Positions 2,748 through 50,470 of a stretch of DNA of 64,000 nucleotides are shown in pieces. This stretch comes from Clostridiales bacterium UBA4080. Lineage in GTDB: Bacteria; Bacillota; Clostridia; Lachnospirales; Vallitaleaceae. The number at the start of each line of letters is the position of its first letter. The stretch's first letter is position 1. Location: the NCBI GenBank assembly GCA_002381865.1, contig DFYO01000019.1, forward strand, positions 76,202-140,201, given 5' to 3'. Under the pieces are notes generated by a model. That model was not told the DNA's origin, did no database searches, and saw only the letters and a program-made list of their open reading frames with translations. The translations under genes were made by a program, and so were the position numbers.

Positions 2748-3317
2748 CTAGCTGTACCATATTTTTTCGCAGCTGGTAGAAATACAGGTAGCCCCTGCAT
2801 CAAGACTTTCTATTATTTCATTTTTGCTTTCAATTAATCCGCCTGTAATTATTGGCACTTTTACAGTTTTGCTTATTTCTCTAGTAATTTTAGGCACTAC
2901 ACCTGGCATTATCTCAACTGCATCAGGTGTAACCTGATTGATTGAAATAATTCCTGCCTGAATAGATTTTGAGTCCAAAATAAAGAGCCTTTGTACCACA
3001 AAGCAATTAAGCTCTTTTGCTTTCTTAACCAAGCTTGTTTTAGTTGTAACCACTCCGCTGGGTTTAATTTCTTCTTGAATATACTTGAGAGAATATGCAT
3101 CATTTGCAAATCCTTTGATTAGATCAAGGTGCACAAAGACATATTTGTTTTTATCAATAACATCCTGTACGTCCTTTTTAAGATTAAATATATCACCATA
3201 AAGCATAAAAATAACCTCACATGGTGATGCAAGTGCATGGTCCAGCTTTTCTCTATCGCTAACCGCAGCTATGATAGGATTATCTGCAAGAATCTCATAG
3301 ATATCTTTTTTTCTCAT
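2748..3317 (-). CDS. glpP: glycerol-3-phosphate responsive antiterminator GlpP
   Basis: MRKKDIYEILADNPIIAAV...VHLDLIKG...IMPGV.PKI...PIITGGLI matches the G3P_antiterm family. Start moved to the ATG at 3317, preceded by GGAGGCG. Confidence 0.85.
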   Translation of the reverse strand: MRKKDIYEILADNPIIAAVSDREKLDHALASPCEVIFMLYGDIFNLKKDVQDVIDKNKYVFVHLDLIKGFANDAYSLKYIQEEIKPSGVVTTKTSLVKKAKELNCFVVQRLFILDSKSIQAGIISINQVTPDAVEIMPGVVPKITREISKTVKVPIITGGLIESKNEIIESLDAGATCISTSCEKIWYS

Positions 3318-3593
3318 TTTCGCCTCCGAATATCTTGATTCAATAATAATCAAATATGTTTTGCGTCCCCGCATTTTTTAATTGCATTTCAAAATCACCT
3401 TAGCCCAAAAACAAAAAACCGCAAAACCTACTTTATTGTTTATACTAACTTTATGATTATAACATAAATTTTACTAATAATTCGTAGTAATTTTACTATA
3501 TCAACATAACAATGTCAAGGTAAACAATATTATTTTGCACCTAGTATATACCCCAAAATTACTACATCATTCTCAAATATTTCTCAATAATAA

Positions 3594-3681: not shown

Positions 3682-5604
3682 TTACTTATTCAGGTTTCTG
3701 ATAATATCATATTGCTGGTCAGTACTTTCAATAAAGCCCTGTACCTTGGTTTCGATTCCAGCATAATCATTAAACTCTACAAATGCTTTTCTTAATTTTT
3801 CAATAATATCATCAGGAATATCCTTTCTTGCAGCTAGTGCATCCTTAGGAATATCATCTGTCTTTGATATAATGTTTAGTTCATGAACAGGTATTCCATT
3901 CGCTTCGGCCTTTTCAAACGCTTCATTATAGGTAGCTCCAGCGTCTATTTCCCTAGACATAACTGAGTTGATTACATTATCATGGTTTCCTAAGAAGGTA
4001 ACCTTATTAAAGATTGTGTCAGGATTTAAGCCGCTCTTTTTAATGCTGTCTTTTGCATATAGATATCCTGAAGCACTGTTTTCGTCAACATAACCAAAGG
4101 ATTTACCCTTTAGGTCATTCATATTCTTAACTTCACCGTCTTTTCTAGCTATTATATAGCCATTGTAATAGCTCTTTCCACCAACCTTAGGAGTTACTAT
4201 AGGTTTAACACCACACTTTTCATGAGCATTAACATAGGCAAATGGTGAGAACCATCCAATATCAATAATACCCTTTTCAATACCTTCACTTAATGCATCA
4301 TAATTACGAACAATAATTGTTCTTGCCTTGAAGCCTATGCTTGCACATACTCTTTCTAAGATAGGCACATACATCTTCTTAATACTCTGTGGTTCAGCAA
4401 ATGGGTTAACCCCAAATATAATCTCATTGTCTTTTTTGAAATTAACTGCTTCTTTTTGAAGTACCTCAGCCATTTCACTAATCTTATTACAGAAAACAAG
4501 AATTTCTTTGTTTTTCTTGTTTTGCAAATCTACCATTTGAATAGACTTATAGGTTACGTTGTGTGTTTCTTCTACCGCAATAGCTACATCCTCAATTGCT
4601 TTTTCAATTTCCATTGCACTATTTTTTTGAATTGTCGAAAGTCCGCTAAGTGCCGACAAATCAGTCTTAACATCCTTAAGAATTGTGCTGATTTCTCCAA
4701 TAACTGTTGCTGATTCAGTTACAACCACATCAACATCATTCATCTTATCGCCAATTTCGCTCATTGCAATATTAGTTGCATCTATTTTTTCAAGAATGTT
4801 TTTAACTACGCCTTCAATTACAGAAATCGCATCATCGGTCTGTTCAGCAAGCTTTCTAATTTCACTTGCAACTACCGAAAAGCCTCTTCCTGCCTCGCCA
4901 GCTCTTGCCGCTTCAATTGCAGCATTAAGTGCCAGAAGATTTGTCTGACTGGAAATCTTTCTAATATAATCAACAATTTCATTGATTTTCTTAGAGGCGC
5001 TTAAAAGCTGTTCATTATTGTCAGTAGCTGTCAAAATAATATCAGCAAAGCTCTTCATTACTTCACCAATGCTACTGATAGTTGTTTTGTTTTTATCCAG
5101 CATTTGAATGGATGTTTCAGAATGTTGTTCTATTTCCAATACACTTGAATTCAAATTAGTAGATGTATCCACCAGCTCATTGATGCTGGCATTGATTTCC
5201 TGAGAGCTTGCCGCATTCTGTTCACTGAATTTTTCAATCTCATAGGAGATTTTAGCAAGCTTTTCAAAGGTATTTATATTATCTTGTGAGAGCCATAATA
5301 GCTGCTGTGCATCAAATCCCATGTTCTCTGCTATATTAAATAACTGCTCATCCAATCCCGAACCTACAATATTAATTGCTTTAGTCTTTGGAGCGCTTTC
5401 AGGCGCTTTATATTGCTGCGTCTGCTCCTGTGGTCTTGCAGTATCCTGATTTAATGTGTAATCAGTTAATACTACTGCAATAACTCCTCCAATAACCGCC
5501 AGCAACAAATTGGTAATTCCTTGGGTTCCCATAAAATAAAGGACACCCTGTACTACTGTAATTCCAATTCCCGCTGCCAGATAAAACTTAACTTTAGTAT
5601 TCAT
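3682..5604 (-). CDS. methyl-accepting chemotaxis protein with C-terminal PhnD-like substrate-binding domain
   Basis: Two N-terminal TM helices with no periplasmic domain. MCP signalling core [37 protein letters not shown]. The C-terminal 246 aa carry [20 protein letters not shown], a phosphonate-binding-protein-like motif. Start set at MNTKV (5604), which has a GGGTGG SD. Confidence 0.85.
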
Positions 5605-6034
5605 AGTCAAACCACCCCGCAAAATTTTTTAGTATTTCACCACATAGCCTTTAAGTTTTAAAGCTAAACGCATATCGAACTCTCATTTTTAGAATATTAA
5701 TATTCTATGGAATGCCTTTCTTGTATGTCAGGTAAGTTTTGACTTTCTAAATTAAGTCTAGCTTTCCTATTATAGAATCAAAAGCACTTCTCACACTCTT
5801 ATGTATCACATAAATCAATTATATTCTATGCCTAATTCCTTGTCAAGAGCTCTGGGCTTTATTAACTTTGTATATTTAAAGTTTTTTTAAAAGTATTTTT
5901 TTGTATAAATATTACCGAATATACAGTTTTCTATTGTTTGTACCCTCTATTACTATAGCAATTACTTTAATATTTAAAGAGTTTTATTCGTGACAGAATT
6001 AGTCCACACTTTGTTATTGCTGACAATTATTGTT

Positions 6035-6790
6035 TTAGAATCTGTTCAAAAACAATTTTGTTCTCTCGTTTTTTGGATTATTTATAATTTCTTCCGGGCT
6101 TCCTTGTTCAACAATAACTCCCCCATCCATAAATATAATATGGTTTGCAACATCCCTGGCAAAGCTCATTTCATGGGTTACAATAACCATAGTCATATGT
6201 TCTGCCGCCAGGTCTTTTATTACCTTGAGTATTTCTCCTGTAAGCTCTGGATCAAGTGCCGAAGTAGGCTCATCAAAAAACAATACCTTTGGATTAAGCG
6301 CAAGTGCTCTTGCAATAGATACACGCTGCTGCTGTCCTCCCGAAAGATGGCATGGATAAGAATCCTCTTTTTCGGCAAGACCCATTTTAGCCAGCAATTC
6401 TCTTCCTATTTTCATTGCCTCCTCTTTACTTTTACCCTGAACATGCATTGGCGCATCAATTACATTTTTTATTACTGAATAATGCGGAAAAAGATTGAAA
6501 TTTTGAAATACAAGCCCAAAATGATTGTGCATTCTCTTTAGATCTTTATTGCTCACATAAACAGCATTTCCATTTTCATCATTTTTTACCGCATGCTCTC
6601 CAACATAAATAAGTTCTCCTGAATCTATTTTTTCAAGAAAGGTTGCACACCTTAATAGTGTTGACTTACCCGAGCCCGATGGTCCTATTATTGCAAGCAC
6701 CTCTCCTTGCTTTACCTCTAAGGATATATCTTTTATTACCTCAAGGTCACCGAAGCTTTTTTTTAAATTTTTTATTTCCAATAATTTCAT
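6035..6790 (-). CDS. amino-acid ABC transporter ATP-binding protein
   Basis: Walker [10 protein letters not shown], signature [15 protein letters not shown], Walker [12 protein letters not shown]. Confidence 0.9.
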
Positions 6791-6801
6791 AAGATTCGCT
6801 C

Positions 6802-7452
6802 CTATTTATAATAACTCAGTTTTTTCTCAGTTCTTTCCATACCCATTGCAACAACAAAATTAAATATGTAATAAAATACTCCTGCCGCAATATACGGAAT
6901 CATATTTGACAATCTGGATGCATGCGCTCTTGCAATTGTAAACATCTCAGTTTGTCCGATTACGTAAGCCAATGAAGTATCTTTAACTAAGGTAATAACC
7001 TCGTTTGTAACTGAAGGTAAAATTCGCTTAATCACCTGAGGAAATATAATTTTAAAAAAGGTCTGTATTTTACTATAACCTAGTACTTTTGCCGCTTCAT
7101 ATTGTCCAACCGGTATGGACTCAATGCCCCCGCGATAGATTTCCGCGAAATAAGCCGCATAGTTTAATACAAATCCTATAATTACTGCAATGAATCTATA
7201 TTCATTTGTGATTTTGACATCAAAAATAAAATATGGACCATAAAAAACAACCATCAGCTGAAGCATTAATGGCGTTCCTCTCATTATAGAAATATATATT
7301 CTGACTATATTTTTGAGTATTATATTTTTTGACATTCTTCCAAATGCAACAATAAGTCCAAGCGGCAAAGAAAATAGCAGCGTCAGACAAAATATCTTAA
7401 TTGTATCTCCAAACCCTGCCATAAGCTGTAAAATCAAAGCAGATAGTTCCAA
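6802..7452 (-). CDS. amino-acid ABC transporter permease
   Basis: 216 aa, polar amino-acid permease (HisMQ-type) motifs. TTG start with a GGAGG SD 8 nt upstream. Confidence 0.85.
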
Positions 7453-7537
7453 AGCTTTTACCTCCTATAATTATTAATGTGAGTGATTACACAATATATT
7501 TTTATTTAATTCAAACTCAGAATTTTATTTTTGACGG

Positions 7538-7565
7538 TTAAAAGGGCTGTCATCCGACAGCCCTT
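7538..7565 (-). terminator. intra-operon hairpin between binding-protein and permease genes
   Basis: AAGGGCTGTC-ATCC-GACAGCCCTT perfect 10-bp stem followed by TTTTAA on the minus strand. Confidence 0.6.
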
Positions 7566-7585
7566 AACAGAAAAATTCATGCCCT

Positions 7586-8398
7586 TTATTTTCCGATTGT
7601 AGTTACGTCTTTACCAAACCAAGTATTAGAGATTTCAGCAAGCTTTCCATCTTTCGCCATTTCCTCGAGCGTTGCCTGCACCTTATCTCTTAATTCTTCA
7701 TTTCCAAGCAAAAAGCCAACGCCGTATTGCTCTGAAGCAATTGATTCTTCAAGAGCTATAAGGGTATCCCCGCGTTGTTCAATTTGATAATCCGCCACAA
7801 TACTGTCCATTGCAACTGCATCTACTGCTCCAGATTCTAAATCCATTAATGCTGCATTGTAGTCAGCTGAGGTTAGATAATTGCCAAAGGTTGCAACAAG
7901 ATCCGCTTTATCCTTTAGTGCTGATTCTGCACTTGAATCTGCCTGAACAGTTACAGTCTTGCCTTTTAAATCTGCTAATGTTTTAATGTTTGCATCTGCC
8001 TTCACAACAAATACCTGCTCATTTTCCATATATGCAGTTGTCCATGTATATTTGTCTTCACGTCCATTTATTGTAAATCCGTTCCATATACAATCAATAT
8101 TTCCTGCTTTAAGCTCCATGTCCTTAGAATCCCAAGCTATTGGCTGAAGTACTAATTCCATATTCATTCTTTTTGCTGCTTCTTTTGCAAGGTCAAGATC
8201 AAAGCCTGTAAACTCCCCATCTTTTCCTACAAATCCCATTGGCGGGAAATTCTGATCAAAACCTACTATTAGCTTTCCTTCTGTTGTAGGAACATCTTTA
8301 GCTCCCTCATTCTCTTTGTTTTCTTTTGGCGCACATGCCGTCATGCTTATAGCAATTACAAGCATCATTATTATTGCTGCTATTTTTTTCAAAACCAA
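7586..8398 (-). CDS. amino-acid ABC transporter substrate-binding lipoprotein
   Basis: Lipobox ISMTAC, family-3 SBP motifs (GFDLDLAKE, IDCIWNGFTI). The TTG at 8398 has only 2 nt of SD spacing, so the TTG at 8392 may be the true start. Confidence 0.85.
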   Translation of the reverse strand: MVLKKIAAIIMMLVIAISMTACAPKENKENEGAKDVPTTEGKLIVGFDQNFPPMGFVGKDGEFTGFDLDLAKEAAKRMNMELVLQPIAWDSKDMELKAGNIDCIWNGFTINGREDKYTWTTAYMENEQVFVVKADANIKTLADLKGKTVTVQADSSAESALKDKADLVATFGNYLTSADYNAALMDLESGAVDAVAMDSIVADYQIEQRGDTLIALEESIASEQYGVGFLLGNEELRDKVQATLEEMAKDGKLAEISNTWFGKDVTTIGK

Positions 8399-8542: not shown

Positions 8543-8583
8543 CACTACTTCTTATGATTCTTTTATACTTTAACTTAATCCTC

Positions 8584-9078
8584 TTATTCCTGTGGTTCTT
8601 CTTTATTATAAGTTATTGAAACATACTCATCTGCTACTGTATAGCTTACCGATACAGTTTCTTTTGTCTCTTCTTTGCTTCCCATAAATGATAATGTGTT
8701 TTCATCCTGCATTGCAAAGGTCTGTTCATATCCCATTCCTTTAAGCTTTTCTACATATTCTGAATAATCATCCCTGTCTACTTCTTTTAGTCCAATTAGT
8801 TGTCCTGTTCCGATATTCATTACTGTTTCTACCCTGCCTTTAAGCTTCGGAAGATCCCCCAAGCCATCTTTTGGCCATTCCAAATCACTTCCAGTTTTTA
8901 AGCTGCTTCCATCATCACCCTTAATCTCTACTTCGCCGTCCTTAACGTCTACATTTGGTCCTAAAATTGTGTCTGCTGCTTTTTCAGCCATCTTATCTTT
9001 GATTTTAGAACATCCGCTAACTGAAAAAACCAAAGCAAGTACTACCACTAAGCTTAAAATCCTTTTCATAACCTTCAC
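8584..9078 (-). CDS. hypothetical lipoprotein
   Basis: Signal peptide plus lipobox VSGCS. No recognisable domain. Confidence 0.6.
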   Translation of the reverse strand: MKVMKRILSLVVVLALVFSVSGCSKIKDKMAEKAADTILGPNVDVKDGEVEIKGDDGSSLKTGSDLEWPKDGLGDLPKLKGRVETVMNIGTGQLIGLKEVDRDDYSEYVEKLKGMGYEQTFAMQDENTLSFMGSKEETKETVSVSYTVADEYVSITYNKEEPQE

Positions 9079-9164: not shown

Positions 9165-10532
9165 TTACACGTTTTCTATAATTCTTGCAACATGAATTCC
9201 ACTCGCGGCTGCTTGAGATAATGAATGCGTAACTCCCGAGCAGTCTCCCAAAACGTAGAGTCCTTTCACATTGGTTTCAAGGTTTTCATCTACTTCAATA
9301 TTTGAATTGTAAAATTTAACCTCAACACCATATAATAGTGTATCTTCATTTGCAGTCCCTGGTGCAATTTTATCCAATGCATAAATCATCTCAACAATAT
9401 CATCTAACTGTCTTTTTGGTAAAACCAAGCTCAAATCCCCAGGAGTTGCATTTAACGTTGGATTTAAAAACGACTTTAGCATCCTTCTTTCACTACTTCT
9501 TCTTCCTTTTACAAGATCTCCAAAGCGTTGCATCAAAACTCCGCCTCCTAGCATATTACTTAATCTTGCAATTGATTCGCCATATTCATTGCTGTTTTTA
9601 AAGGGTTCTGTAAATTTACTGGAAACTAGCAAAGCAAAATTTGTATTTTCTGTATGAAGTGCCTCTTCTGAATAGCTATGCCCATTTACCGTTACAATAT
9701 CACCGTAATTCTCAGTTACCACTTCTCCGTAAGGATTCATACAGAAGGTTCTTACTACATCATTATATTTTTTTGTCTTGTAGACAATTTTACTTTCATA
9801 CACATCATCTGTAATGTGTTTGAAAACCAAAGCCGGTAATTCAACTCTTACACCTATGTCTACTCGGTTATTAGTTGTTTTAATATCAAATTTTTCGCAT
9901 ACCTTTCCAATCCATTTTGAACCAGTTCTTCCTGTTGCAACAATTAGCTTTTTTGTTTCAAAGGTTTCTTCCTTTGTAGCTACATAGAAAGTATCCTTTT
10001 GTTTTTCTACATTTGTAACCTCAGTTTCAAATCTTATATCAATTTTATCTTTTATATATTGAAACATATTTTCTGCAATAACAAGATTTCTATCTGTACC
10101 TAGATGTCTTACTTTTGCATCCAACAAATGAAGGTCATGCCTTAATGCTTCTGTTTTCAGCTTACTGTTTTCTGTAGAATAAAGCTTTGCCTCTCTTCCT
10201 CCCATTGCAAGATTAATATCATCAACCTCCCACATCAAGCTAATAGCCTTATCTCTTCCAACAAATTTATACAGTTCTCCTCCAAAATTGTTTGTAATAT
10301 TAAATTTACCATCCGAAAAACCTCCCGCCCCATAGAAGCCTTCCATAATGCTGCAGCTTTTGCATTTACATTCAGTTATTCTTGGATTAATAGTTTTTGG
10401 ACATTTTCTTCTATCTAAAGGATAGCCCTTTTCTAGCATAAGGATTTTTTTATTGGTCCCGCTTTTTACTAACTCATAAGCACAAAATACACCTGCCGCA
10501 CCTGCACCCACTATAATCAAATCATACATCAT
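9165..10532 (-). CDS. FAD-dependent oxidoreductase (COG2509-like)
   Basis: N-terminal dinucleotide fold DLIIVGAGAAGVFCA, C-terminal GLYVLGDCSG. Start placed at the ATG at 10532, 5 nt after GAGG. Confidence 0.7.
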   Translation of the reverse strand: MMYDLIIVGAGAAGVFCAYELVKSGTNKKILMLEKGYPLDRRKCPKTINPRITECKCKSCSIMEGFYGAGGFSDGKFNITNNFGGELYKFVGRDKAISLMWEVDDINLAMGGREAKLYSTENSKLKTEALRHDLHLLDAKVRHLGTDRNLVIAENMFQYIKDKIDIRFETEVTNVEKQKDTFYVATKEETFETKKLIVATGRTGSKWIGKVCEKFDIKTTNNRVDIGVRVELPALVFKHITDDVYESKIVYKTKKYNDVVRTFCMNPYGEVVTENYGDIVTVNGHSYSEEALHTENTNFALLVSSKFTEPFKNSNEYGESIARLSNMLGGGVLMQRFGDLVKGRRSSERRMLKSFLNPTLNATPGDLSLVLPKRQLDDIVEMIYALDKIAPGTANEDTLLYGVEVKFYNSNIEVDENLETNVKGLYVLGDCSGVTHSLSQAAASGIHVARIIENV

Positions 10533-10769
10533 ATACACCTCGATTTCTTGTATTCTTTTATCTATTTGTTTTAATTTTTATTAAAAGCTCCACTGAAAAT
10601 TATATCAAATTATATTAAAATTGTATATCAAAAATAACTGTTTTCTATTTTGTTTGTCAATAATTACATAGTAACAATTTGTATTTTTCTATGACCCTTA
10701 GGGTTTCATTCGCCTTCCCATGCACATCGTGTGCATAAGGGAAGGCGTTATTTGTGACCACAAAGAACC

Positions 10770-10820
10770 AAAAAAGAAAAGAGCCTGCGATAGCTTTGTC
10801 AGCAATATTCGCAAGCTCTT
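10770..10820 (-). terminator. rho-independent terminator of dhaK
   Basis: AAGAGC-TGCGA...TCGCA-GCTCTT two-tier stem followed by TTTTCTTTTTT on the minus strand. Confidence 0.7.
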
Positions 10821-10882: not shown

Positions 10883-11878
10883 TTAGTTTTGTACAAATGC
10901 AGGTGTATCTGCTGGTGCAAATAACAATTCTTTTAATTCTGCATCTAATTTCAATATTGAAATTGAAAATCCTGCCATATCCAATGATGTCATATAGTTT
11001 CCAACAATTGTTTTTGCAACTTTAATTCCTTTTTCAGCTAAAACTTCAGCAACTCTTAGGTTTGCAACGTATAGCTCCATTACAGGAGTTCCGCCTAATC
11101 CATTTACTAATACTGCAACCTCGTCACCGCTTGCAGGTTTTAAATCTTCAAGAATTTTTTCTAACAAATGATCAACTGTTTCATTTGCTGAACGCAATGT
11201 TTCTCTATGTGTTCCTGGCTCACCATGAATTCCCATTCCGATTTCAACTTCATCTTCACCAAGAACGAAGCTTGGTTTTCCAGCTGCTGGAACAGTACAG
11301 GTGGTTAATGCCATACCCATTGATTTAACATTTGTAATAACTTTTTCTGCAACTCTTTTCACTTCATCTAAGTCTGCTCCAGCTTCTGCCTTAGCTCCAG
11401 CAATCTTATGCACTAAAACAGTTCCTGCAATACCTCTTCTGCCTGTAGTCCATGTACTGTCTTCAACTGCAACGTCATCATTTACAACTACGTATTTAAC
11501 ATCAATTCCTTCTTCTGCTGCCATTTCTGCTGCCATTTCAAAGTTCATAATGTCCCCTGTGTAATTCTTAACTACCAATAAAACCCCTTTGCCGCCATCA
11601 ACTGCTTTTACTGCTTCAAATACCTGGTCAGGAGTAGGTGATGTAAATACAGCTCCTGCAACAGCTCCATCGAGCATTCCTTTTCCAACAAAACCTCCAT
11701 GTGAAGGCTCATGTCCACTTCCACCACCACTAACCAATGCAACTTTTGCTTGTGGCGCATTCGCTCTTACAAGCACTTCAAATCCTTCAACTCTCTTTAC
11801 ATAGCTCGGATGTGCTGCCACAATACCTTTAAGCATTTCATCAACTACATTGTCTGGATTGTTAATAATTTTTTTCAT
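10883..11878 (-). CDS. dhaK: dihydroxyacetone kinase subunit DhaK
   Basis: VALVSGGGSGHEPSHGGFVGKGMLDGAVAG is the Dak1 signature. Start at MKKIINN (11878) with an AGGAGG SD. Confidence 0.95.
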   Translation of the reverse strand: MKKIINNPDNVVDEMLKGIVAAHPSYVKRVEGFEVLVRANAPQAKVALVSGGGSGHEPSHGGFVGKGMLDGAVAGAVFTSPTPDQVFEAVKAVDGGKGVLLVVKNYTGDIMNFEMAAEMAAEEGIDVKYVVVNDDVAVEDSTWTTGRRGIAGTVLVHKIAGAKAEAGADLDEVKRVAEKVITNVKSMGMALTTCTVPAAGKPSFVLGEDEVEIGMGIHGEPGTHRETLRSANETVDHLLEKILEDLKPASGDEVAVLVNGLGGTPVMELYVANLRVAEVLAEKGIKVAKTIVGNYMTSLDMAGFSISILKLDAELKELLFAPADTPAFVQN

Positions 11879-11894: not shown

Positions 11895-13616
11895 TTAATT
11901 AATATCATTTATATTACTAGCAACAATCGTGCCAGTTAATAGTTCCTTAATCTTAGAAGCTTGATTATATGACATAATACTTTCTACAAATTGCTTTTCT
12001 GCCTTAGATTCTATTATTTGCTCTTTGATTTTCGGTATTGATGGGGCGCTCATACTTAGCTCATCTATGCCCATTCCAACAAGTAACCTTGTCATAATAG
12101 GGTCTCCAGCCATTTCACCACATATTCCTACCCATTTTCCGTTTTCATGTGCTGCCTCTGAAACCTTTTTAACAAGCCTCAAGATTGCAATATCAAAATG
12201 CGAATATAGCTTGCTGATTTTTTGATTTCCTCTGTCTACAGCTAATGTATATTGAACTAAGTCGTTTGTTCCAATACTGAAAAAGTCAACCTCCTTAGCA
12301 AATACATCCGCCATAATTGCCGCTGCCGGTGTTTCAACCATAATGCCAAGTTGTATATTTTCACCATACTTTACGCCTTCATTATCAAGTTGCTTTTTAG
12401 CTTCTTCAATTATTTCTTTTGCTTTATTTATTTCTTCAAGGCTGATTATCATAGGCAGCATTATAGCTACCCTTCCATAGGCAGAAGCTCTTAATATAGC
12501 TCTTATCTGAGTAATAAAAATATCTGTTCTTTCCAAACTTATTCTAATAGCACGAAATCCTAGAAACGGGTTTTCCTCTTTGCCTATTTCCAAATAAGAT
12601 AGAGGCTTGTCTCCTCCAATATCAAGCGTCCTTATAACGCATAATTCGTCTTTTAGCTTTTGCACTACATATTTATATGCTTCAAACTGTTCTTCCTCTG
12701 TAGGAAGTCTTTTTTTACCCATAAATATAAATTCTGTCCTAAAAAGCCCGACACCCTTACAGCCGTATTTCAAAGCCTCATCAATATCCTCCGGATTACC
12801 TATATTAGCAGCCAGAATTATTTCTCTGTTATCCTTGGTAATTGCCGGTATTTCATTTAAGCTCATATAATATGCCTTCTTCTTTTCCTCTTCCTTAAGC
12901 TGCTTATTATATTTGTCAATGCTATCTTTGTCTGGCTTCAATATAAGACTTCCATTATAACCGTCAATAATTGCAACATCTTCCTTACTATAGTCGCCTA
13001 TTTCTTCTCCAACGCCAACAACTGTTACAATGTTTTTAGATTTGGCAATAATTACCGCATGAGATGTAGTGCTTCCATTCCCCATAACAATTCCTGCAAT
13101 TTTTTCTTGTGGAAGATTTGCTACAACCGAGGGTTCAATTTCTTTGCCGTATAAAATAATATTATCCTGCTCAAAAACATTTTCCTCTATTCCCAAAATA
13201 ATTTTTAATACTCTTTTTGAAATATCCTTAACATCAACAGCTCTTTCTCTTAAATAAGGATCATCAAGGGCTCCCAGCATATCCGATAATTCTTTTGCTA
13301 CATTTATTATAGCTGTCGGAGCGCAGATATCAGCTTCAATTTGCTGTAAAGTCCCATCATAAAACATTGGATCCTTAAGCATAAGCATGTGTGCTTCCAT
13401 AATATCAGCCTGCTCTCTTTCATCCTCTTTTTTAGCTTTAATCAATATCTCGCTGAGTTGTTTTTCAGCTATAGCGATAGCTTGGTTTAATTTTTGTTTC
13501 TCCTGTTCAGAATCACCCTTTTGATAGGTTTTTAGCTCTTCTTCAAAGCTATCCCTTAATATCATAATTCTGCCAATACCAATACCTTCAACCACGCCCT
13601 TGCCTTTGAACTCCAT
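11895..13616 (-). CDS. ptsI: phosphoenolpyruvate-protein phosphotransferase (PTS enzyme I), full length
   Basis: Active-site region GSTTSHAVIIAKS, FFSIGTNDLVQYTLAVDR, GICGEMAGDP. Start at MEFKGKG (13616) after a GAGGTGG SD. Confidence 0.93.
   Translation of the reverse strand: MEFKGKGVVEGIGIGRIMILRDSFEEELKTYQKGDSEQEKQKLNQAIAIAEKQLSEILIKAKKEDEREQADIMEAHMLMLKDPMFYDGTLQQIEADICAPTAIINVAKELSDMLGALDDPYLRERAVDVKDISKRVLKIILGIEENVFEQDNIILYGKEIEPSVVANLPQEKIAGIVMGNGSTTSHAVIIAKSKNIVTVVGVGEEIGDYSKEDVAIIDGYNGSLILKPDKDSIDKYNKQLKEEEKKKAYYMSLNEIPAITKDNREIILAANIGNPEDIDEALKYGCKGVGLFRTEFIFMGKKRLPTEEEQFEAYKYVVQKLKDELCVIRTLDIGGDKPLSYLEIGKEENPFLGFRAIRISLERTDIFITQIRAILRASAYGRVAIMLPMIISLEEINKAKEIIEEAKKQLDNEGVKYGENIQLGIMVETPAAAIMADVFAKEVDFFSIGTNDLVQYTLAVDRGNQKISKLYSHFDIAILRLVKKVSEAAHENGKWVGICGEMAGDPIMTRLLVGMGIDELSMSAPSIPKIKEQIIESKAEKQFVESIMSYNQASKIKELLTGTIVASNINDIN
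11919..11934 (-). promoter_or_regulatory. sigma-54 (-24/-12) promoter in front of dhaK, inside the 3' end of ptsI
   Basis: Minus strand reads TGGCACGATTGTTGCT (TGGCAC-N5-TTGCT). It ends ~40 nt upstream of the dhaK ATG. Confidence 0.7.
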
Positions 13617-13626
13617 AAATCCACCT

Positions 13627-13893
13627 CTAGTCTTCATAAAAATTATTTGTAATCAAGGTATCCAAGGCTTCTATTGCTTTATCTTCATCTGCTCCTTCTA
13701 CTGCTACTGTCAGCTCCTGGCCTGTTTTAATACCCAAAGACATAATCATCAATAAGCTTTTGGCATTTGCTTTTTTATTATTCCCAAGCAAGGTAATATT
13801 GCTTATATATTGAGAAGAAATTTTTGCAATTTCAGCTGCTGGACGAGCATGTATCCCCAGCGAATTAATTATTGTATATTTATTCTGTTTCAT
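13627..13893 (-). CDS. ptsH: HPr phosphocarrier protein
   Basis: GIHARPAAEI (His15 motif) and AKSLLMIMSLG (Ser46-like). Start at MKQNKY (13893) with a GGAGG SD. Confidence 0.9.
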   Translation of the reverse strand: MKQNKYTIINSLGIHARPAAEIAKISSQYISNITLLGNNKKANAKSLLMIMSLGIKTGQELTVAVEGADEDKAIEALDTLITNNFYED

Positions 13894-13935
13894 TATATAG
13901 TCCTCCATAATTCTTTGAGCAAAAACCTCAGAGCG

Positions 13936-14334
13936 TTATTGAAGCTTTAGTACCTCTCTTGCTAGCTCTGCTGCTTCAATTACTTCATCAATATTTCCTC
14001 CGATAAATGCTTGTACAGCTGCACTTATAGAGCCTTCCATAACTGGAGCGTCTGCAATTTTTGCGTCAATTTTTACTCCCGCTTCTTCTAAAAGTTCAAT
14101 AGCCAGATTAGCACTTAATACCGCACTTCCTAAATCTACAAGAATTACAACGCCTTCTCCGGTATCCGCCATTCTTATAGCCTCGCTGATTCTAACAGCA
14201 TCAGTTCCAATTCCTCCATCCTCCATTCCTCCTGCAGAAACTATTTTCTGATTCGGACCTGCCATTTGCATAGAAAGCTCTGCAATTCCTTCTGCAACCT
14301 TTTTACTATGAGACACTATTACGATTCCAACCAC
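13936..14334 (-). CDS. dhaM: dihydroxyacetone kinase phosphotransfer subunit DhaM (EIIA-Man-like domain only)
   Basis: MVGIVIVSHSKKVAEGI, an EIIA-mannose-type His motif. 132 aa, sits between dhaL and ptsH. Confidence 0.85.
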   Translation of the reverse strand: MVGIVIVSHSKKVAEGIAELSMQMAGPNQKIVSAGGMEDGGIGTDAVRISEAIRMADTGEGVVILVDLGSAVLSANLAIELLEEAGVKIDAKIADAPVMEGSISAAVQAFIGGNIDEVIEAAELAREVLKLQ

Positions 14335-14336
14335 AA

Positions 14337-14972
14337 TTAGCCCTCCATTCCATTTGCTTTATAGTAATCCGTTGCAGCCTTGAGCATAATGTAAAAAGAC
14401 GTTGCACCCGGATCCTGATGTCCAATGCTTCTATCTCCCAAATAGCTTGCTCTTCCCTTTGTAGCTCTGATTGTTTTAGTAAATTCAATTCCTTCCTCGG
14501 CAGCCTTTAAAGCTAAGTCCAGACAATCAGCAATACTTTTACCTTGCTCATGAGCACTTTTTAATGCTTCAATTGCTGGTTCAATTGCATCTATCATAGT
14601 CTTCTCACCCTTAACTGCTTTACCTCTGTCTTTTATTCCAGTTAGTGCAGCTGTCAGCATTTTTTCCATAGCTGTCAAGTCAATTGTTTCTTGCCCCACA
14701 GCTTCTGCTCCCGCTTTCATAAATGCAGTTCCGTATAAAGGACCCGAAGCACCTCCAACTGTAGAAATTAAAGTCATACCCACTTTTTTTAATGTAGCGC
14801 CAACATCCTTATCTTCATCAGTAATCTTAGGAACAACCGCATTGAAGCCTCTAGCCATATTAATACCATGGTCAGCATCTCCTATTGCTCCATCAAGCTC
14901 AGTAAGATATTCTTTGTTTTTAGTAATCTCTTCATTCACAGCCTTTAAGTAGCCATTAATATTTGTTGCCAT
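14337..14972 (-). CDS. dhaL: dihydroxyacetone kinase ADP-binding subunit DhaL
   Basis: LDGAIGDADHGINMARGF, GGASGPLYG (Dak2). Start moved to MATNING (14972), preceded by GGAGG. Confidence 0.9.
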   Translation of the reverse strand: MATNINGYLKAVNEEITKNKEYLTELDGAIGDADHGINMARGFNAVVPKITDEDKDVGATLKKVGMTLISTVGGASGPLYGTAFMKAGAEAVGQETIDLTAMEKMLTAALTGIKDRGKAVKGEKTMIDAIEPAIEALKSAHEQGKSIADCLDLALKAAEEGIEFTKTIRATKGRASYLGDRSIGHQDPGATSFYIMLKAATDYYKANGMEG

Positions 14973-15041
14973 CTTTTTTTCCTCCATTTGATCTTGATAA
15001 TAGATTTGGTATATGGCCCCTATTATCTTGCTAATATAATA

Positions 15042-15057
15042 AGCAAGAAGTGTGCCA
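15042..15057 (-). promoter_or_regulatory. sigma-54 (-24/-12) promoter in front of dhaL-dhaM-ptsH-ptsI
   Basis: Minus strand reads TGGCACACTTCTTGCT, starting 1 nt after the stop codon of the EBP gene. Confidence 0.75.
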
Positions 15058-15058
15058 G

Positions 15059-17101
15059 CTATTTGCATAAATTAAATTTCCTAGCCTTTGCTGCAACCGT
15101 ATTATGTGTAAGTCCTAATACCTTTCCCGCAGCATTAAAGCTTTTATATTTTTCAAGAGCCTTTTCAATAACAATTTTTTCATATTCTTCCCAGGAAAGC
15201 ATATCCACCTCTTTTTCCACAATGCACTCAAAATCATCTGTTTCTATTTGCCTTTGGTTGTCTAAAATATACATTGGAATATTTTCTGCCCTTACAACAT
15301 TTCCTTCCATTAAAATCATAGTTCTTTCCATTACATTTTCCAGTTCCCTGATATTGCCTGGCCAAGTATAATTCTTTAGAGCCCTAAGCGCCTCTTTCTC
15401 GAACATAATTTTATCTTTTCCCAAATCTTCAGATATTCTTTCACAAAAATGTTCCGCGAGAATCGGAATATCCTCTCTTCGATCTCTTAAAGGCGGCAGC
15501 CAAATAGGAATAACATTAAGACGATAGTATAAATCTTCTCTAAACTCTCCATTTTTTACCATTTGCTCTAAATCTTGGTTTGTAGCCGCTACAATCCTTA
15601 CATCTACCTTAATATTCTTTTCTCCACCTACCCTTTGAAATTCCTTGCTCTGAACTACACGAAGTAGCTTAACCTGCATACTTTTATCAAGCTCTCCGAT
15701 TTCATCTAAAAATATAGTTCCTTTATCTGCTAGTTCAAATCTTCCCAGCTTTGTTTTATATGCTCCTGTAAATGAGCCTTTTTCATGTCCAAATAATTCA
15801 CTCTCAATCAGTGTAGGAGGGATGGCTCCGCAATTTACTCTAACAAATGGTTCTGAAGCCCTAGAGCTAGAATAGTGAATTGCTTCAGCTATAAGCTCCT
15901 TGCCTGTTCCGCTCTCTCCTCTAATTAAAACAGTATATTTGCTTGTAGCAGCTTTTGCTGCTGTTGTCATGCAATCATAAAGCTTTCCGCTTACTCCCTT
16001 AATATTCTCAAATGCGGGGCCTAGCTTTTTAACTCTGATTAATTCCTCCTGCAAATAGTCAGCCTTCGCTGATGCCTTGCTCAGCTTTTCCATTAATGTC
16101 TGAACCTCAGTAATATCCTTAATTATGGATATTCCTCCCATTATCTGTTCATCTACTATTAACGGATTAACATTGCTTACAACTGTTACTCCATTCTCTT
16201 TTTTGCTGATTCCACCCCTTACCGCTTTGCCATGTTCAAGAACCTTAACCCTGTCTCCTTCTGGTGACAATTCCCTGACATTAACTCCTATCAATTCCTT
16301 GGCTTTTTTGTCAATTATTTTGCAATATGCTGCATTTACATAAGTAATTTCACCATTATTATCAAAAAAACAAATTCCATCTTGCACAGATTCCAATATC
16401 AATTGATATTTTTCCTTAAGCTCTTTTATTTCTTTTAATTGCCAAGAAACATTTGTAAGCATTGAAACATCTTCAAATATACTGACTGCGCCTCTTATCT
16501 GGTTTTCAACCAAAAGCGGTGAGCTATTAGTTACAACTGTATAATCACCAATGTTTTGAGTATAGCCAATCTCAGTTTTTTTAGTTTGAACGATTTCTGG
16601 CAAAATAGAGTCTGGGAATACATCTCTTATATCCCTTCCAGCAATTCTATCTGCCGGTACATCAAATATTCTTTCAGCCTCCTTATTAAAAAAGGTTACA
16701 ATATTATTTTCATTTATTACAATCAATCCATTTGCAATGCTGTCGAAAATATTTTCTGCTGTCAAAATATTATCCTGTAAGATACTATCAATATCTCCTA
16801 CCGCATTTTGGTCCAATTCGAAATCACCACCAAGATATTCCGCCATTAATATTGATGCTTCTTCAGCACCCTCACCTTCTGTAAGCATTTCAAACTCTTC
16901 TTTAGCTTTAATCTTCATTGAAATCAATAGCAGAATGCTATTTAGCGGCACCTCTTTATATGCCCCCTTTTTCACCTTAAATTCTACATTGTATTTTTTT
17001 TGGAGTTCCTCTGCTTTCTGAACTATCATTGCCGCAACTCTTGCGTGCAAGCCCTTAGCATGTTGCATAACAATTTTTTTACTTATACTCTTTTTAGCCA
17101 T
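15059..17101 (-). CDS. sigma-54-dependent transcriptional activator with N-terminal HPr-like domain, two PAS-like regions, AAA+ domain and HTH
   Basis: N-terminus [12 protein letters not shown] (HPr His motif). AAA+ domain: [21 protein letters not shown] (GAFTGA variant), VRIVAATN. C-terminal HTH: [21 protein letters not shown]. Confidence 0.88.
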
Positions 17102-17143
17102 AATATTACCCCTGTTATCAATTAATAGTCACATTATTATAAT

Positions 17144-17159
17144 AGCAAGAATCGTGCCA
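17144..17159 (-). promoter_or_regulatory. sigma-54 (-24/-12) promoter in front of the EBP gene
   Basis: Minus strand reads TGGCACGATTCTTGCT. It ends ~43 nt upstream of the EBP ATG at 17101. Confidence 0.75.
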
Positions 17160-17203
17160 AGTATTATTTGACTTTTTTTCTTGCTATCTGTTAATTATCT
17201 TCT

Positions 17204-17237
17204 TATTTAGATAAAGTTGTCAATAATTATCTAAATA
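17204..17237. promoter_or_regulatory. perfect 11-bp inverted repeat, candidate enhancer (UAS) site
   Basis: TATTTAGATAA-N12-TTATCTAAATA. The centre lies roughly 60 nt upstream of the -24 element at 17154..17159. Overlaps the rpoN stop codon. Confidence 0.4.
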
Positions 17238-18580
17238 TATTCCCTTCTTTTATCTGCTGCCATTATTCCAAGCTGACTTCTGTATTTTGCTACTGTTCTT
17301 CTGGAAATCTTCATGCCTTCTTGCTGAAGCTTCTCAACTATCATCATGTCGCTCAGTGGCTCTCTCTTATTTTCAGCTTTAACAATACTTAATATTGCTT
17401 GCTTTATGCTATCAGAGGAATTATCCTGTTGAATATTTTTCCCAACGTTTTTGCATGAAAAAAAATATTTCAGAGGGTACAATCCCCATTTACACAGGAG
17501 ATATTTATCATTTATTGCTCTGCTAACAGTGGATTCATGCATTTGTGTAATATCTGCAACGTCTTTCAAGTTTAGAGGTCTTAAAAAGCCTTTTCCTTTT
17601 TCAAAAAAATCCTTTTGCTGTTTAGCCAATACCTCTGCAATTTTTTCTAAGGTGTCGTTTCTCTGATTAATGCATTTTAATAGCCAACTTGCATTACTGT
17701 AATTATCACCCAAATACTTTACCAGCTCTTTATCTTGAGTTAATTTCAAATATTTACAGTATTCTGTGTTTATCTTTATATTTGGAATATTTGCTTCATT
17801 TATAGAAATAACCAACCCCATTTCACCTTGTTCAATCACAATATCAGGCTTGATATATTGAGTAATTCCAGAGTAAAATGAAGCTCCTGGCTTAGGATTA
17901 AGCATTTTTATTTCTCGAATAAGCTCCTGTGTCTCAGCTATTTCAATTCCCAGTTCTTCTGCTATATGCTTGATTTTATTATCAGCAATCTTTTCCAAAT
18001 ACTTATCAGCAAGCAGATATGTCAATGTATTCTTTTTCCCCTGATTTTCAAGCTGTATCAGCAAACACTCTCTTAAGCTCCTAGCCCCAACTCCTGAAGG
18101 CTCCATCTTTTGTATTATTACCACAGCCTTCTCTGCTGATTTTTTATCACATCTGAGTTTTTTTGTAATTTCCTCAAGCTCAAAGCTTAAATATCCTTTT
18201 TCATCTAAGCTTTCAACAAGAAATTCTACTATCAATTTAGTTTTTTTATCTAGTTTAAGAAATATTAATTGTTCTTTGAGGAACTCTGATAATGTTTGTT
18301 TAATAAACGATTCATCCTTTATTTCATTTGAAAAATCCTGGTCGTCTTGTCCCTTTTTGTTTTTATGCTTGTAATAATCCGCATCCTCCTGATTCCTTTG
18401 TATTAAAACAGAGCTTTTATCTGATTGTTCGTCATATTCAAGTGCAGGATTACTTAATATTTCTTCATGAATCATTTCTGACAATTCTTCGTTGCCTAGC
18501 TTTAAAATTTTTAATGAATATTCCATTTTTGGCGTCAGTATTAAGTTTTGGGAGTAAATCATATCCATATCAAAATTCAT
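17231..18580 (-). CDS. rpoN: RNA polymerase sigma-54 factor
   Basis: Region I LILTPKMEYSLKILKLGNEELSEMIHEEILSNPALE. C-terminal RpoN box HESTVSRAINDKYL. Confidence 0.93.
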   Translation of the reverse strand: MNFDMDMIYSQNLILTPKMEYSLKILKLGNEELSEMIHEEILSNPALEYDEQSDKSSVLIQRNQEDADYYKHKNKKGQDDQDFSNEIKDESFIKQTLSEFLKEQLIFLKLDKKTKLIVEFLVESLDEKGYLSFELEEITKKLRCDKKSAEKAVVIIQKMEPSGVGARSLRECLLIQLENQGKKNTLTYLLADKYLEKIADNKIKHIAEELGIEIAETQELIREIKMLNPKPGASFYSGITQYIKPDIVIEQGEMGLVISINEANIPNIKINTEYCKYLKLTQDKELVKYLGDNYSNASWLLKCINQRNDTLEKIAEVLAKQQKDFFEKGKGFLRPLNLKDVADITQMHESTVSRAINDKYLLCKWGLYPLKYFFSCKNVGKNIQQDNSSDSIKQAILSIVKAENKREPLSDMMIVEKLQQEGMKISRRTVAKYRSQLGIMAADKRREYI

Positions 18581-18596: not shown

Positions 18597-19790
18597 TTAT
18601 CCCTTTTTAATAGGAAGCCTTATCAAAAAGCTGCTCCCTTGATTTTCTTCACTTTGAGCTTCAATTTCTCCCCCATGCTTATTAACAATAATGTCATAAG
18701 AAATACTTAATCCAAGCCCCGTTCCTCTTTGAGAGGCTTTAGTTGTGTATAGCGGATTGAATATCTTTTCTAGATTTTCGTTATTTATTCCCGGTCCGTT
18801 ATCAGATATTCTAATGCAAACATATTCACTTTCTTTATAGGCATTTATATGTATATGCCCTCGGTCTTCACGATACTGTTTTCTTATTGCTTCAATTCCA
18901 TTAAGCATAACATTCAAGAAAACCTGTCCTAGCTGACTTGAATTTGCCCATATCTCCGGGAGCTTATCTATTTCTTTTGTAATATCAACCGAATCCTTAG
19001 CCTCATTTGCAATAACTATAATTATTTGATTAATAAGACTTTCAATATCGCATATATCATATTCATTTTTAGCCTTTGCCCAAGACAGGTTCAAAAGCGA
19101 TTGAATTATCTGTGAAACCTTTTCTAAAGAGTCCTTTGAGGAATCTATGATCAAACGTACTTCTTCAAAATTCCCCTCTTCAAATTCTCCTTTTTTAACC
19201 TTCTCACAGTAATTTGCCAGCTGTTGAAGATTAAGATACGCTTTTTCAATAGGTTGGTTTATTTCATATCCTATCCCCGCTGCAATCTCTCCAATATTAG
19301 ACATTTTTCTTGATTGCACCAAATGAAACTGTGCATCCTCTAAGAGCTTGTTGGCAATTTTCAGTTCTTCATTTTGACCCTTTACAACCTCCAGCATTTC
19401 TCTAAGCATTCTTGTATTGGCCCTTGTTCTTGCTGCTGCACTAACTCTGGCTTTAAATTCAATTATTTCTATAGGCTTTTGAATATAATCATTTGCTCCG
19501 TATTCAAAGCATGATTTTAAGCTCTCCTTATCATCAAGGGATGTTAACATAATAATCTGAATATCGTTAAATGCATCAATATCACGTACATTTCTAAGAA
19601 CTTCAATTCCGCTCATTTCTGGCATAATAATATCAAGCAAAAGAATATCTATTGCTTCTGTTTCTAATATTCCGATAACATCTTGCGGCCTTTGGCACAA
19701 GATTCCCGTATAATCATTAAAATAGGTTTTCAGATAACCGTCAGCAAACTTTAAATTTAGTTTGTCATCATCTACTACCAGCACTCTCAT
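18597..19790 (-). CDS. REC domain fused to a histidine-kinase-like core whose H-box His is replaced by Tyr
   Basis: REC: VVDDD, LLLDIIMPEMSG, MLTS, IQKPI. H-box position reads AAGIGYEINQPI. The N, G1 and G2 boxes are intact (NVMLNGIEA, DNGPGI, GTGLGLSIS). Confidence 0.8.
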   Translation of the reverse strand: MRVLVVDDDKLNLKFADGYLKTYFNDYTGILCQRPQDVIGILETEAIDILLLDIIMPEMSGIEVLRNVRDIDAFNDIQIIMLTSLDDKESLKSCFEYGANDYIQKPIEIIEFKARVSAAARTRANTRMLREMLEVVKGQNEELKIANKLLEDAQFHLVQSRKMSNIGEIAAGIGYEINQPIEKAYLNLQQLANYCEKVKKGEFEEGNFEEVRLIIDSSKDSLEKVSQIIQSLLNLSWAKAKNEYDICDIESLINQIIIVIANEAKDSVDITKEIDKLPEIWANSSQLGQVFLNVMLNGIEAIRKQYREDRGHIHINAYKESEYVCIRISDNGPGINNENLEKIFNPLYTTKASQRGTGLGLSISYDIIVNKHGGEIEAQSEENQGSSFLIRLPIKKG

Positions 19791-36645: not shown

Positions 36646-36786
36646 CTTTAAACTTTAAAAAACTTACCCTTGTAAAATTTAGGGTGCTTCATTAATATCT
36701 TTAATTAAAGCAAAACAATAGATGTTTTATTCAAATTATTGACAATATTACTAAAATTTAGTTTAATAACTATGTAGCTAAAATAT

Positions 36787-36859
36787 ACAGGAGTGGCTCA
36801 GTTGGTAGAGTACTAGACTGGGGGTCTAGGGGTCGCGGGTTCGAGTCCCGTCTCTTGTG
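36787..36859 (+). tRNA. tRNA-Pro(GGG)-like gene with atypical acceptor end; no encoded CCA
   Basis: Manual cloverleaf: acceptor ACAGGAG/CTCTTGT, D arm GCTC-AGTTGGTA-GAGT, anticodon arm CTAGA-CTGGGGG-TCTAG, variable loop GGGTC, T arm GCGGG-TTCGAGT-CCCGT, discriminator G. Confidence 0.8.
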
Positions 36860-37016
36860 TCCTTAATTACAAACACTTTAGGTGTTTATAATTATAAAAC
36901 AATTTCACTCAAACAAGAAATTACTTAAAAATTGTCCCCCCAAAACCAATTTATAAAGGCAGCATTAAAAACGTCTGCCTTTAATATTTCATAAAGATAA
37001 CCTTAGGAGAGTAGAT

Positions 37017-50355: not shown

Positions 50356-50402
50356 TTCCTACAACCTCAACAGCTTGAAAAGCTTAATTGACATTGTGTG
50401 AA

Positions 50403-50470
50403 CTCGTAGCCTGTAACTATTTACGGTAGTTTGTAGAAACATTTGACCCATATTGTCAAATTTATACGAG
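50403..50470 (-). ncRNA. purine (guanine-class) riboswitch aptamer
   Basis: Minus-strand RNA: CUCGUAUAAAUUUGACAAUAUGGGUCAAAUGUUUCUACAAACUACCGUAAAUAGUUACAGGCUACGAG. P1 is CUCGUA/UACGAG. The UAUAA, AUAUGG, GUUUCUAC and CCGUAAAU cores are conserved, and a C precedes the P1 3' strand. Confidence 0.8.

Follow-up and report, generated by a model that had tools for sequence, protein, structure and literature searches.

The dha/PTS locus and its three predicted sigma-54 promoter sites

The subject of this analysis is a 64-kb stretch of DNA from the Clostridiales bacterium UBA4080 (contig DFYO01000019.1), here called the window, whose source organism, uncultured, is known only through metagenomes, among them hydrocarbon-associated ones. 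On its minus strand lies a cluster in which rpoN, the gene for sigma-54, is followed by a gene for an enhancer-binding protein (EBP) of the DhaQ type, described below, and by genes for a dihydroxyacetone (DHA) kinase and for HPr and Enzyme I (EI) of the phosphotransferase system (PTS). From upstream to downstream, with the Pfam domains found, the genes are:

17231..18580, minus strand: rpoN (sigma-54), 449 residues; Sigma54_AID, Sigma54_CBD and Sigma54_DBD, with the RpoN box RRTVAKYR
15059..17101, minus strand: DhaQ-type EBP gene, 680 residues; PTS-HPr, two PAS, Sigma54_activat, AAA_lid_14 and HTH_50
14337..14972, minus strand: dhaL (ADP-binding subunit), 211 residues; Dak2
13936..14334, minus strand: dhaM (EIIA-Man-like phosphotransfer subunit), 132 residues; EIIA-man
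13627..13908, minus strand: gene for the operon-encoded HPr, 93 residues; PTS-HPr
11895..13637, minus strand: ptsI (EI), 580 residues; PEP-utilisers_N, PEP-utilizers and PEP-utilizers_C
10883..11878, minus strand: dhaK (dihydroxyacetone-binding subunit), 331 residues; Dak1, E = 9e-139

The EBP gene is the only one of its kind in the window, and its product carries the motifs GESGTGK (Walker A), the GAFTGA-type loop GSFTGA at residue 442 and DEIG (Walker B). In its HPr domain the residues His19 (in KGLHARVAA) and Ser55, the equivalents of His15 and Ser46, are invariant in 10 homologues. Homologues of the activator run into thousands, one cluster being present on 191 contigs.

An earlier note on this DNA had proposed that three exact TGGCAC-N5-TTGCT sites lie within the cluster, and both their coordinates and their quoted sequences proved right. 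A scan of the window for TGGCACNNNNNTTGCT gives exactly three matches, which all lie on the minus strand, at 17159..17144, 15057..15042 and 11934..11919; in 100 dinucleotide-preserving shuffles the mean was 0.03, and none reached three. Here we call these predicted sigma-54 promoters P1, P2 and P3:

17144..17159, minus strand: P1, TGGCACGATTCTTGCT, before the EBP gene; predicted start near 17133
15042..15057, minus strand: P2, TGGCACACTTCTTGCT, 1 nucleotide (nt) past the EBP stop and before dhaL; predicted start near 15031
11919..11934, minus strand: P3, TGGCACGATTGTTGCT, within the last 13 codons of ptsI and before dhaK; predicted start near 11908

All three have the expected geometry, the GG of the -24 element and the GC of the -12 element being exactly 10 bp apart within TGGCAC-N5-TTGCW. 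They are also, as the note had said, correctly oriented, close upstream of start codons and beside rpoN: from the last base of TTGCT it is 42 nt to the ATG of the EBP gene, 69 nt to that of dhaL and 40 nt to that of dhaK, and each of these start codons has a good ribosome-binding site. A position weight matrix (PWM) was built from 26 orthologous promoters of other genomes, leaving the window out. With this matrix P2 scores 35.8, P1 30.0 and P3 23.6 bits, and the runner-up among the 128,000 positions of the window reaches 7.7 bits. When one mismatch to TGGCACNNNNNTTGCT is allowed just three extra sites appear in the window, unrelated to these. Two of the one-mismatch candidates were taken as chance matches: that at 46113 (plus strand) scores 6.5 bits, and that at 26295 (minus strand) lies outside the top 15 PWM positions and so scores below 0 bits.

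The geometry, the orientation, the PWM scores and the presence of a bona fide rpoN with a single adjacent activator gene uphold, at the level of sequence analysis, the identification of the sites as sigma-54 promoters. We regard it as probable, with good confidence, that P1–P3 are functional, activator-dependent promoters of a DhaQ-type dha/PTS operon.

The start of dhaL adopted here, at 14972 (211 residues), is backed by a GGAGG ribosome-binding site and by the N-termini of homologues. The public call for the same organism (243 residues; loci L019 and L020) begins at an ATG at 15068, overlapping the 3' end of the EBP gene and swallowing P2.

Conservation of the locus and of P2 and P3

Related loci were collected by aligning the HPr-PAS region of 10 homologues and then scanning one genome per species. 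This gave 18 loci (the L numbers below), from Petrocella, HGW-Firmicutes metagenome-assembled genomes (MAGs), Fusibacter, Lachnospiraceae (e.g. Maccoyibacter and Eubacterium sp. 14-2) and Clostridium. Two extra relatives were fetched via their EBP proteins: L022, from a sister taxon with at least 90% EBP identity, and L023, with 69% EBP identity. The order rpoN-EBP-dhaL-dhaM-hpr-ptsI-dhaK is found in 11 of the 18 loci (L001–L005, L008–L011, L014 and L015), and two Fusibacter loci (L006 and L007) share the gene order with rpoN not adjacent. Directly upstream of the EBP gene, rpoN is present in 14 of the 18.

Three of the 18 loci are too short to show dha genes; in all 15 that retain them TGGCA[CT]-N5-TTGCT stands before dhaL (or before dhaK in the Clostridium gene order), as it does in L022 and L023. 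Of the 13 loci in which dhaK follows ptsI, 11 have an orthologous P3 before dhaK, the two exceptions being those of Fusibacter. Across clades the five spacer bases and the flanks are the sole variable parts of P2 and P3.

The location of P3 within the last codons of ptsI, another claim of the earlier note, is literally true. The ptsI frame across P3 reads ...L-T-G-T-I-V-A-S-N-I-N-D-I-N, with the stop at 11897-11895, and the EI of the window ends in a 13-residue, clade-specific C-terminal tail, ...ELL-TGTIVASNINDIN, which is read through the promoter. The weight that the note placed on dual coding does not stand, since the tail is confined to the clade and EI elsewhere stops before the promoter. 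In Lachnospiraceae the protein ends ...YLESLL and the promoter follows some 80–350 nt further on, in intergenic DNA, whereas in the window's clade the frame continues for 10–15 codons through P3, as in LL-TGTIVASNINDIN in the window, LL-AGTVLANNIK in L001 and FL-AGTVLANNIIDTIKK in L023. Residue changes in the tail sit at positions encoded by the spacer (I/V/L and V/L); the promoter bases are invariant, even at the third, synonymous positions of GGC and GCT. Judged from this pattern of substitution, the constraint is on the P3 promoter and not on the peptide, and the tail is probably a by-product of intergenic compaction.

A palindrome, CTTGCT-N9-AGCAAG, is visible at 15027-15047 (minus strand), its left arm being the -12 element of P2. 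It is partly kept in L022 (AGTAAG) and absent in L005, and may be due to chance or be a protein-binding site.

Predicted transcripts, enhancers and probable self-activation

The three promoters had been seen in the earlier note as partitioning the locus. This was an overstatement, as none of rpoN, the EBP gene and ptsI has a predicted terminator after it on the minus strand, and the one strong terminator follows dhaK:

10770..10820, minus strand: intrinsic terminator after dhaK, with a 12-bp stem (-21.3 kcal/mol) followed by UUUUCUUUUUU

Its fold has a z-score of -4.1, none of 200 shuffles being as stable, and it is the sole convincing combination of hairpin and T-run on the minus strand between 18700 and 10500. 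With no terminator between the promoters and one after dhaK, P1–P3 probably give nested, co-terminal transcripts rather than separate units. As predicted, P1 would yield a transcript of about 6.4 kb (EBP-dhaL-dhaM-ptsH-ptsI-dhaK), P2 one of about 4.3 kb (dhaL-dhaM-ptsH-ptsI-dhaK) and P3 one of about 1.1 kb carrying dhaK. The outcome would be a staircase of doses, with dhaK above dhaLM and ptsHI and these above the activator; the activator, being on the longest and self-activated transcript, would enter positive feedback via P1.

At the junction of dhaM and ptsH (13918-13975, minus strand) there is a weak hairpin (-12 kcal/mol) followed by TTTTTGCT, which may be a partial terminator or an attenuator.

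In the mechanism that we propose, rpoN would supply sigma-54 and the adjacent HPr-PAS-PAS-AAA+-HTH activator would open the three -24/-12 promoters. The most economical view of the signal, by analogy with PTS-controlled regulators and with E. coli DhaR, is that the activator probably senses how far its own HPr domain, with the invariant His19 and Ser55, is phosphorylated; EI and HPr are both encoded in the operon. The operon's EI would phosphorylate this domain, within a relay running from phosphoenolpyruvate to EI, to HPr or the HPr domain, to DhaM, to DhaL-ADP and finally to DhaK-bound DHA. When DHA drains the phosphate away, the activator would be switched on. The papers searched contained nothing on how HPr-domain EBPs work.

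Whether the activator also controls its own gene depends on P1. A strict pattern of the TGGCACNNNNNTTGCT type missed P1 in all 18 loci, but a near-match was found at the P1 position in L001–L005: GGGCATGAT[AT]ATTGCT in L001–L004 and TGGTATGCTTATTGCT in L005, lying 45–60 nt before the EBP start. MAFFT aligns these sites with P1 of the window, and their flanks diverge. Exact copies occur in L022 (TGGCACAGTTCTTGCT, whose spacer differs from that of the window at two bases) and in L023 (TGGCATGCTTTTTGCT). P1 is thus present in all seven relatives of the window's clade, exact in two and one base off in five. Outside the clade it is absent, Lachnospiraceae having a spacer of 23–80 nt between rpoN and the EBP gene with no site there. 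Since P1 is confined to the window's clade, self-activation appears to be a feature of that clade and not of the family at large.

The enhancers of relatives bear on the same question. In Lachnospiraceae two to three tandem copies of TTGGTAAAAAATATCAA lie 66–158 nt upstream of P3, and DhaQ-type sites are found upstream of P2 too; in Clostridium loci the one promoter is preceded by an inverted pair, TTGGTAAAAAGGAACAA. These sites show the same motif as the published upstream activating sequences (UAS) of DhaQ, TTGATAAAAATATCAA and TTGGTAAAAAGTATCAT (Nie et al. 2019, PMC6615313), which are expected some 100–300 nt upstream of the promoter. By a UAS matrix built from the Lachnospiraceae sites only, TTGRTA-N4-5-TAYCAA sites in relatives score 14–24 bits, and they are found before P3 and P2 in Lachnospiraceae, in Clostridium, and before P1 in L001–L005 and L023. 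The palindrome TGGGTAATAATTACCAA of L001–L004 (14.5–17.4 bits) stands just past the rpoN stop, 82–93 nt upstream of P1; L005 has AGGGTAAAAATTATCAA (17.4 bits) 146 nt upstream; and in L023 the two top UAS matches of the 18-kb locus are at 67 and 96 nt upstream of P1.

Autoregulation of the activator, which the earlier note had also proposed, is therefore supported by sequence comparison, P1 being present in seven relatives of the clade and preceded by DhaQ-type enhancer palindromes in six of them (not in L022). In those six the conjunction of a sigma-54 promoter and a binding site of the activator's own type before the activator gene gives good comparative support to self-activation. In the window itself self-activation is likely, yet less certain than in the relatives because the enhancer before its P1 is degenerate. 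The elements that lie upstream of P1 in the window are:

17204..17237, minus strand: weak candidate enhancer region, an inverted repeat with 11-bp arms, TATTTAGATAA-N12-TTATCTAAATA, overlapping the rpoN stop (from folding)
17194..17223, minus strand: sigma-70-like promoter, TTGACA-18-GATAAT (11/12), from a consensus scan; possible basal EBP expression, function uncertain

Within the first of these, TAGATAATTATTGACAA (17233..17217) aligns with the relatives' palindrome TGGGTAATAATTACCAA yet scores just 4.7 bits by the UAS matrix. The inverted repeat as a whole (17237..17204) is not conserved in the sister L022, where TAGATAAT-ATTTGACAAC is kept. A better UAS match than the P1-proximal site is TTGGGAAAAATATTCAA (10.3 bits), inside rpoN at 17445..17429. 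Of the sigma-70-like site the TTGACAAC element (-35-like) is conserved in relatives and the -10 hexamer is not; with its -10 not conserved the candidate at 17223..17194 is indistinguishable from an activator half-site, and it was set aside. A further candidate, the enhancer-like TTGGTAAATATTGACAA upstream of rpoN in L001–L004, was discounted because it is part of the reading frame of the gene before rpoN (...DLVNIDK...).

Several results on enhancers count against activator-dependent firing of all three promoters. With the UAS matrix nothing of 9 bits or more lies near the window's promoters. No recognisable DhaQ-type site is found within 400 nt upstream of P2 or P3 in the window, L001–L005, L022 or L023, and the P1-proximal enhancer is degenerate both in the window, at the 4.7 bits given above, and in L022. 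A search for the palindrome TTGRTAANNNTTAYCAA with up to three mismatches gave 37 matches against 30.5 expected, i.e. no enrichment, and the published DhaQ UAS as an exact pattern (TGATA-N3-6-TATCA) matches the window once, far from the locus. Nor are 8-mers shared upstream of P1, P2 and P3, sought de novo in four genomes of the clade, above the level of random triples. The published DhaQ regulon is, moreover, itself a comparative-genomics prediction (PMC6615313).

In some relatives the enhancer is distant. The sole P2 enhancer site is 487 nt upstream in L008 and 864 nt upstream in L009, while in L014 the nearest lies 2.3 kb upstream, before the EBP gene, so that long distances between enhancer and promoter may be normal in this family of DhaQ-type loci. 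In the window's clade P2 and P3 might be reached by a loop from the enhancer at P1, might use degenerate sites within coding DNA, or might respond to activator in solution once amplification at P1 has raised its level. A bolder version holds that the sole enhancer kept by the clade is the one before the activator gene, and that P2, 2.1 kb downstream, and P3, 5.2 kb downstream, have lost theirs and depend on long-range looping or on a two-step cascade; this we think rather unlikely. By looping one enhancer would serve three promoters at long range, whereas in a cascade self-amplification at P1 would raise the level of activator until the enhancer-less P2 and P3 fire from solution. Were either true, the locus would be a PTS-gated sigma-54 cassette complete in itself, made up of rpoN, the HPr-fused activator, the dedicated EI and HPr, and DhaKLM; in the uninduced state, closed complexes at its P2 and P3 might in addition shield the dha genes from read-through. 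Independently of this reading, enhancers turn over among clades: the promoters persist, and recognisable enhancers are placed at P2 and P3 in Lachnospiraceae but only at P1 in the window's clade.

Two observations were made on the DNA around these distant enhancers. Between the EBP stop and P2 there is 0.5–0.9 kb of non-coding-looking DNA in L008 (7038-7525) and L009 (10102-10970), with the enhancer right after the EBP stop. In L014, a Lachnospiraceae MAG, the spacer between rpoN and the EBP gene (8560-8680) contains a strong DhaQ-type site, TTGGTAAAAAAGAACAA (23 bits), and a second, inverted copy, followed by a terminator-like hairpin, TTCAGGTGT...ACACCTGAA TTTTT, and no sigma-54 promoter.

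How far the sites could be something other than promoters needs to be considered. That the three matches arose by chance, or are copies of a duplicated AT-rich segment without promoter function, might be suggested by their 64–78% identity over 36 nt (repeat family D3) and by the AT-richness of the DNA (35% G+C). It is hardly credible given the 0.03 matches expected at random, some 20 loci that keep TGGCA[CT] and TTGCT at orthologous sites while spacers and flanks vary, and a PWM score that falls short by more than 15 bits at every other position; the conservation data and the PWM gap together exclude chance and simple duplication. A different possibility is that, without the activator, sigma-54 holoenzyme sitting in closed complexes at P2 and P3 serves chiefly as a roadblock or insulator against read-through from rpoN and the EBP gene, taking the place of the terminators found in Lachnospiraceae, promoter firing being secondary. 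In Salmonella such complexes are reported to be stable, and sigma-54 sites within genes are reported to interfere with transcription. In the window's clade P2 starts 1–2 nt past the EBP stop, P3 is inside ptsI, terminators are missing and no proximal enhancer was found for either, and the Lachnospiraceae locus L010 has a terminator-like hairpin after its EBP gene, all of which would fit. In other clades, however, the same promoters are intergenic and flanked by enhancers, which shows the ancestral role to be that of a promoter, and the location of each site, 40–69 nt ahead of a start codon that has a good ribosome-binding site, also tells against a primary role as roadblock, which we hold to be very improbable.

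A narrower objection accepts P2 and P3 and denies P1 any meaningful part in autoregulation, the activator being made instead from the sigma-70-like promoter or by read-through from rpoN, and P1 itself, with no good enhancer left before it here, being weak or silent. The TTGACA-18-GATAAT match (11/12) is indeed only 35 nt upstream of P1, rpoN has no terminator after it, the UAS score of 4.7 bits upstream of P1 is no better in the sister L022, and the Lachnospiraceae relatives do without any P1. Against this, the core of P1 is exact in both the window and L022 although two spacer bases and the flanks have diverged, which points to selection on the core; orthologous P1 sites in L023 and L001–L005 have strong enhancer palindromes 46–146 nt upstream; and the sigma-70-like site has a -10 hexamer that relatives do not share. 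We therefore consider this alternative unlikely, and retain P1 as a probable third activator-dependent promoter alongside P2 and P3.

Neighbourhood and comparison with known systems

Upstream of the cluster, a 397-residue gene combining a response-regulator receiver with HATPase_c (18597-19790, minus strand) ends 16 nt before the start of rpoN and is probably co-transcribed with it; in L001–L004 rpoN is preceded instead by another gene and a terminator. Beyond the dhaK terminator lies a gene for an FAD-dependent oxidoreductase (Pyr_redox_2 and FAD-depend_C; 9165-10538, minus strand), with sigma-70-like promoters of its own at about 10660-10599. Because the same neighbour follows dhaK in L023, it may be linked functionally to the dha operon. 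A gene for a GlpP-type glycerol-3-phosphate-responsive antiterminator (2748-3374, minus strand), 7.5 kb from the dha operon, hints at more glycerol-metabolism genes nearby. A methyl-accepting chemotaxis protein fused to a phosphonate-type periplasmic binding domain is encoded at 3682-5622 (minus strand) and adjoined by an amino-acid-type ABC transporter (6035-8398). Rfam and tRNA scans found nothing in the dha locus; elsewhere in the window they placed a purine riboswitch (RF00167, 65.5 bits) at 50387-50489 (minus strand) and a tRNA-Pro(GGG) gene at 36786-36862 (plus strand), neither related to the dha promoters.

The locus exemplifies, with phylogenetic support, the wiring of a sigma-54 regulon in Clostridia that are uncultured or live in the gut, and a conserved cassette in which rpoN travels with an HPr-fused activator, an EI/HPr pair of its own and a DHA kinase. 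The nested design with three promoters suggests grading of dose combined with positive feedback. It also illustrates an annotation problem, since automated calls bury such promoters in over-extended open reading frames, as at the dhaL start and the ptsI tail. No new class of mechanism is opened, and it is the placement of the enhancers that would be worth experiment.

Among known regulators of DHA kinases, Escherichia coli DhaR is an AAA+ activator of the EBP family that controls a PTS-dependent DHA kinase operon, dhaKLM, and senses the phosphorelay of the kinase. It reportedly works at a sigma-70 promoter, has GAF and PAS domains and no HPr domain, is controlled by the binding of DhaK and DhaL, and represses its own gene; the DhaM of that system is reportedly a fused EIIA-HPr-EI-like protein. 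The window differs in its sigma-54 promoters, in the HPr module on the activator and in having separate EI and HPr genes in the operon.

LevR with levDEFG, and the PTS-controlled SigL activators of Firmicutes, resemble the present system in combining a sigma-54 activator, expected control by PTS phosphoryl groups and a carbohydrate operon with a -24/-12 promoter. In activators of the LevR type, however, PRD and EIIA/EIIB domains lie C-terminal to AAA+, and the regulators are phosphorylated by free HPr and EIIB, whereas the activator of the window has an N-terminal HPr domain and PAS domains. For the proposed feedback there is a parallel in NtrC, whose gene lies downstream of glnAp2, a sigma-54 promoter that NtrC itself opens, the first molecules being supplied by a basal sigma-70 promoter or by read-through. 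In the window the feedback promoter is directly before the activator gene and upstream of the whole operon, and there are two more, internal sigma-54 promoters.

The name DhaQ is also used in Lactococcus lactis, where it denotes not an EBP but a paralogue of DhaK, a co-activator of the TetR-family DhaS at a sigma-70 promoter. That system likewise regulates a dha operon in a Firmicute, by a mechanism unrelated to that of the window.

The DhaQ intended here is an EBP group with PTS_HPr-PAS-PAS architecture (CA_C3088 and Cbei_2147) described by Nie, Dong & Yang 2019 (BMC Genomics 20:565, PMC6615313). It was predicted to control dhaKLM and ptsI from TTGGCAT-N5-TTGCT promoters in Clostridium, Acetobacterium and Geosporobacter (PMC6615313), and sigma-54 control of dhaKLM in Clostridium beijerinckii was predicted in an independent study. 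The correspondence is extensive. Both activators consist of PTS_HPr-PAS-PAS-AAA+ and a C-terminal DNA-binding domain; the targets are dhaKLM and ptsI, P2 of the window standing before dhaL-dhaM-ptsH-ptsI and P3 before dhaK; the promoter is TTGGCA[CT]-N5-TTGCT and adjoins the activator gene; and the enhancer TTGRTA-N4-5-TAYCAA is seen in the window's relatives, the best match near P1 in the window itself being that of 4.7 bits. The published cases have one promoter per locus, before ptsI or dhaKLM, and the text describes neither a promoter of the activator gene nor autoregulation. By contrast, the window has three co-directional, nested promoters, the order dhaL-dhaM-ptsH-ptsI-dhaK, tight linkage to rpoN, a promoter of the activator gene that is conserved in its clade, and P3 embedded in the tail of EI; in the clade a recognisable enhancer occurs at P1 only, and none is proximal to P2 or P3. 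It is thus well supported that the locus is a further DhaQ-type regulon with some variant wiring, belonging to a type of regulon already predicted in clostridia.

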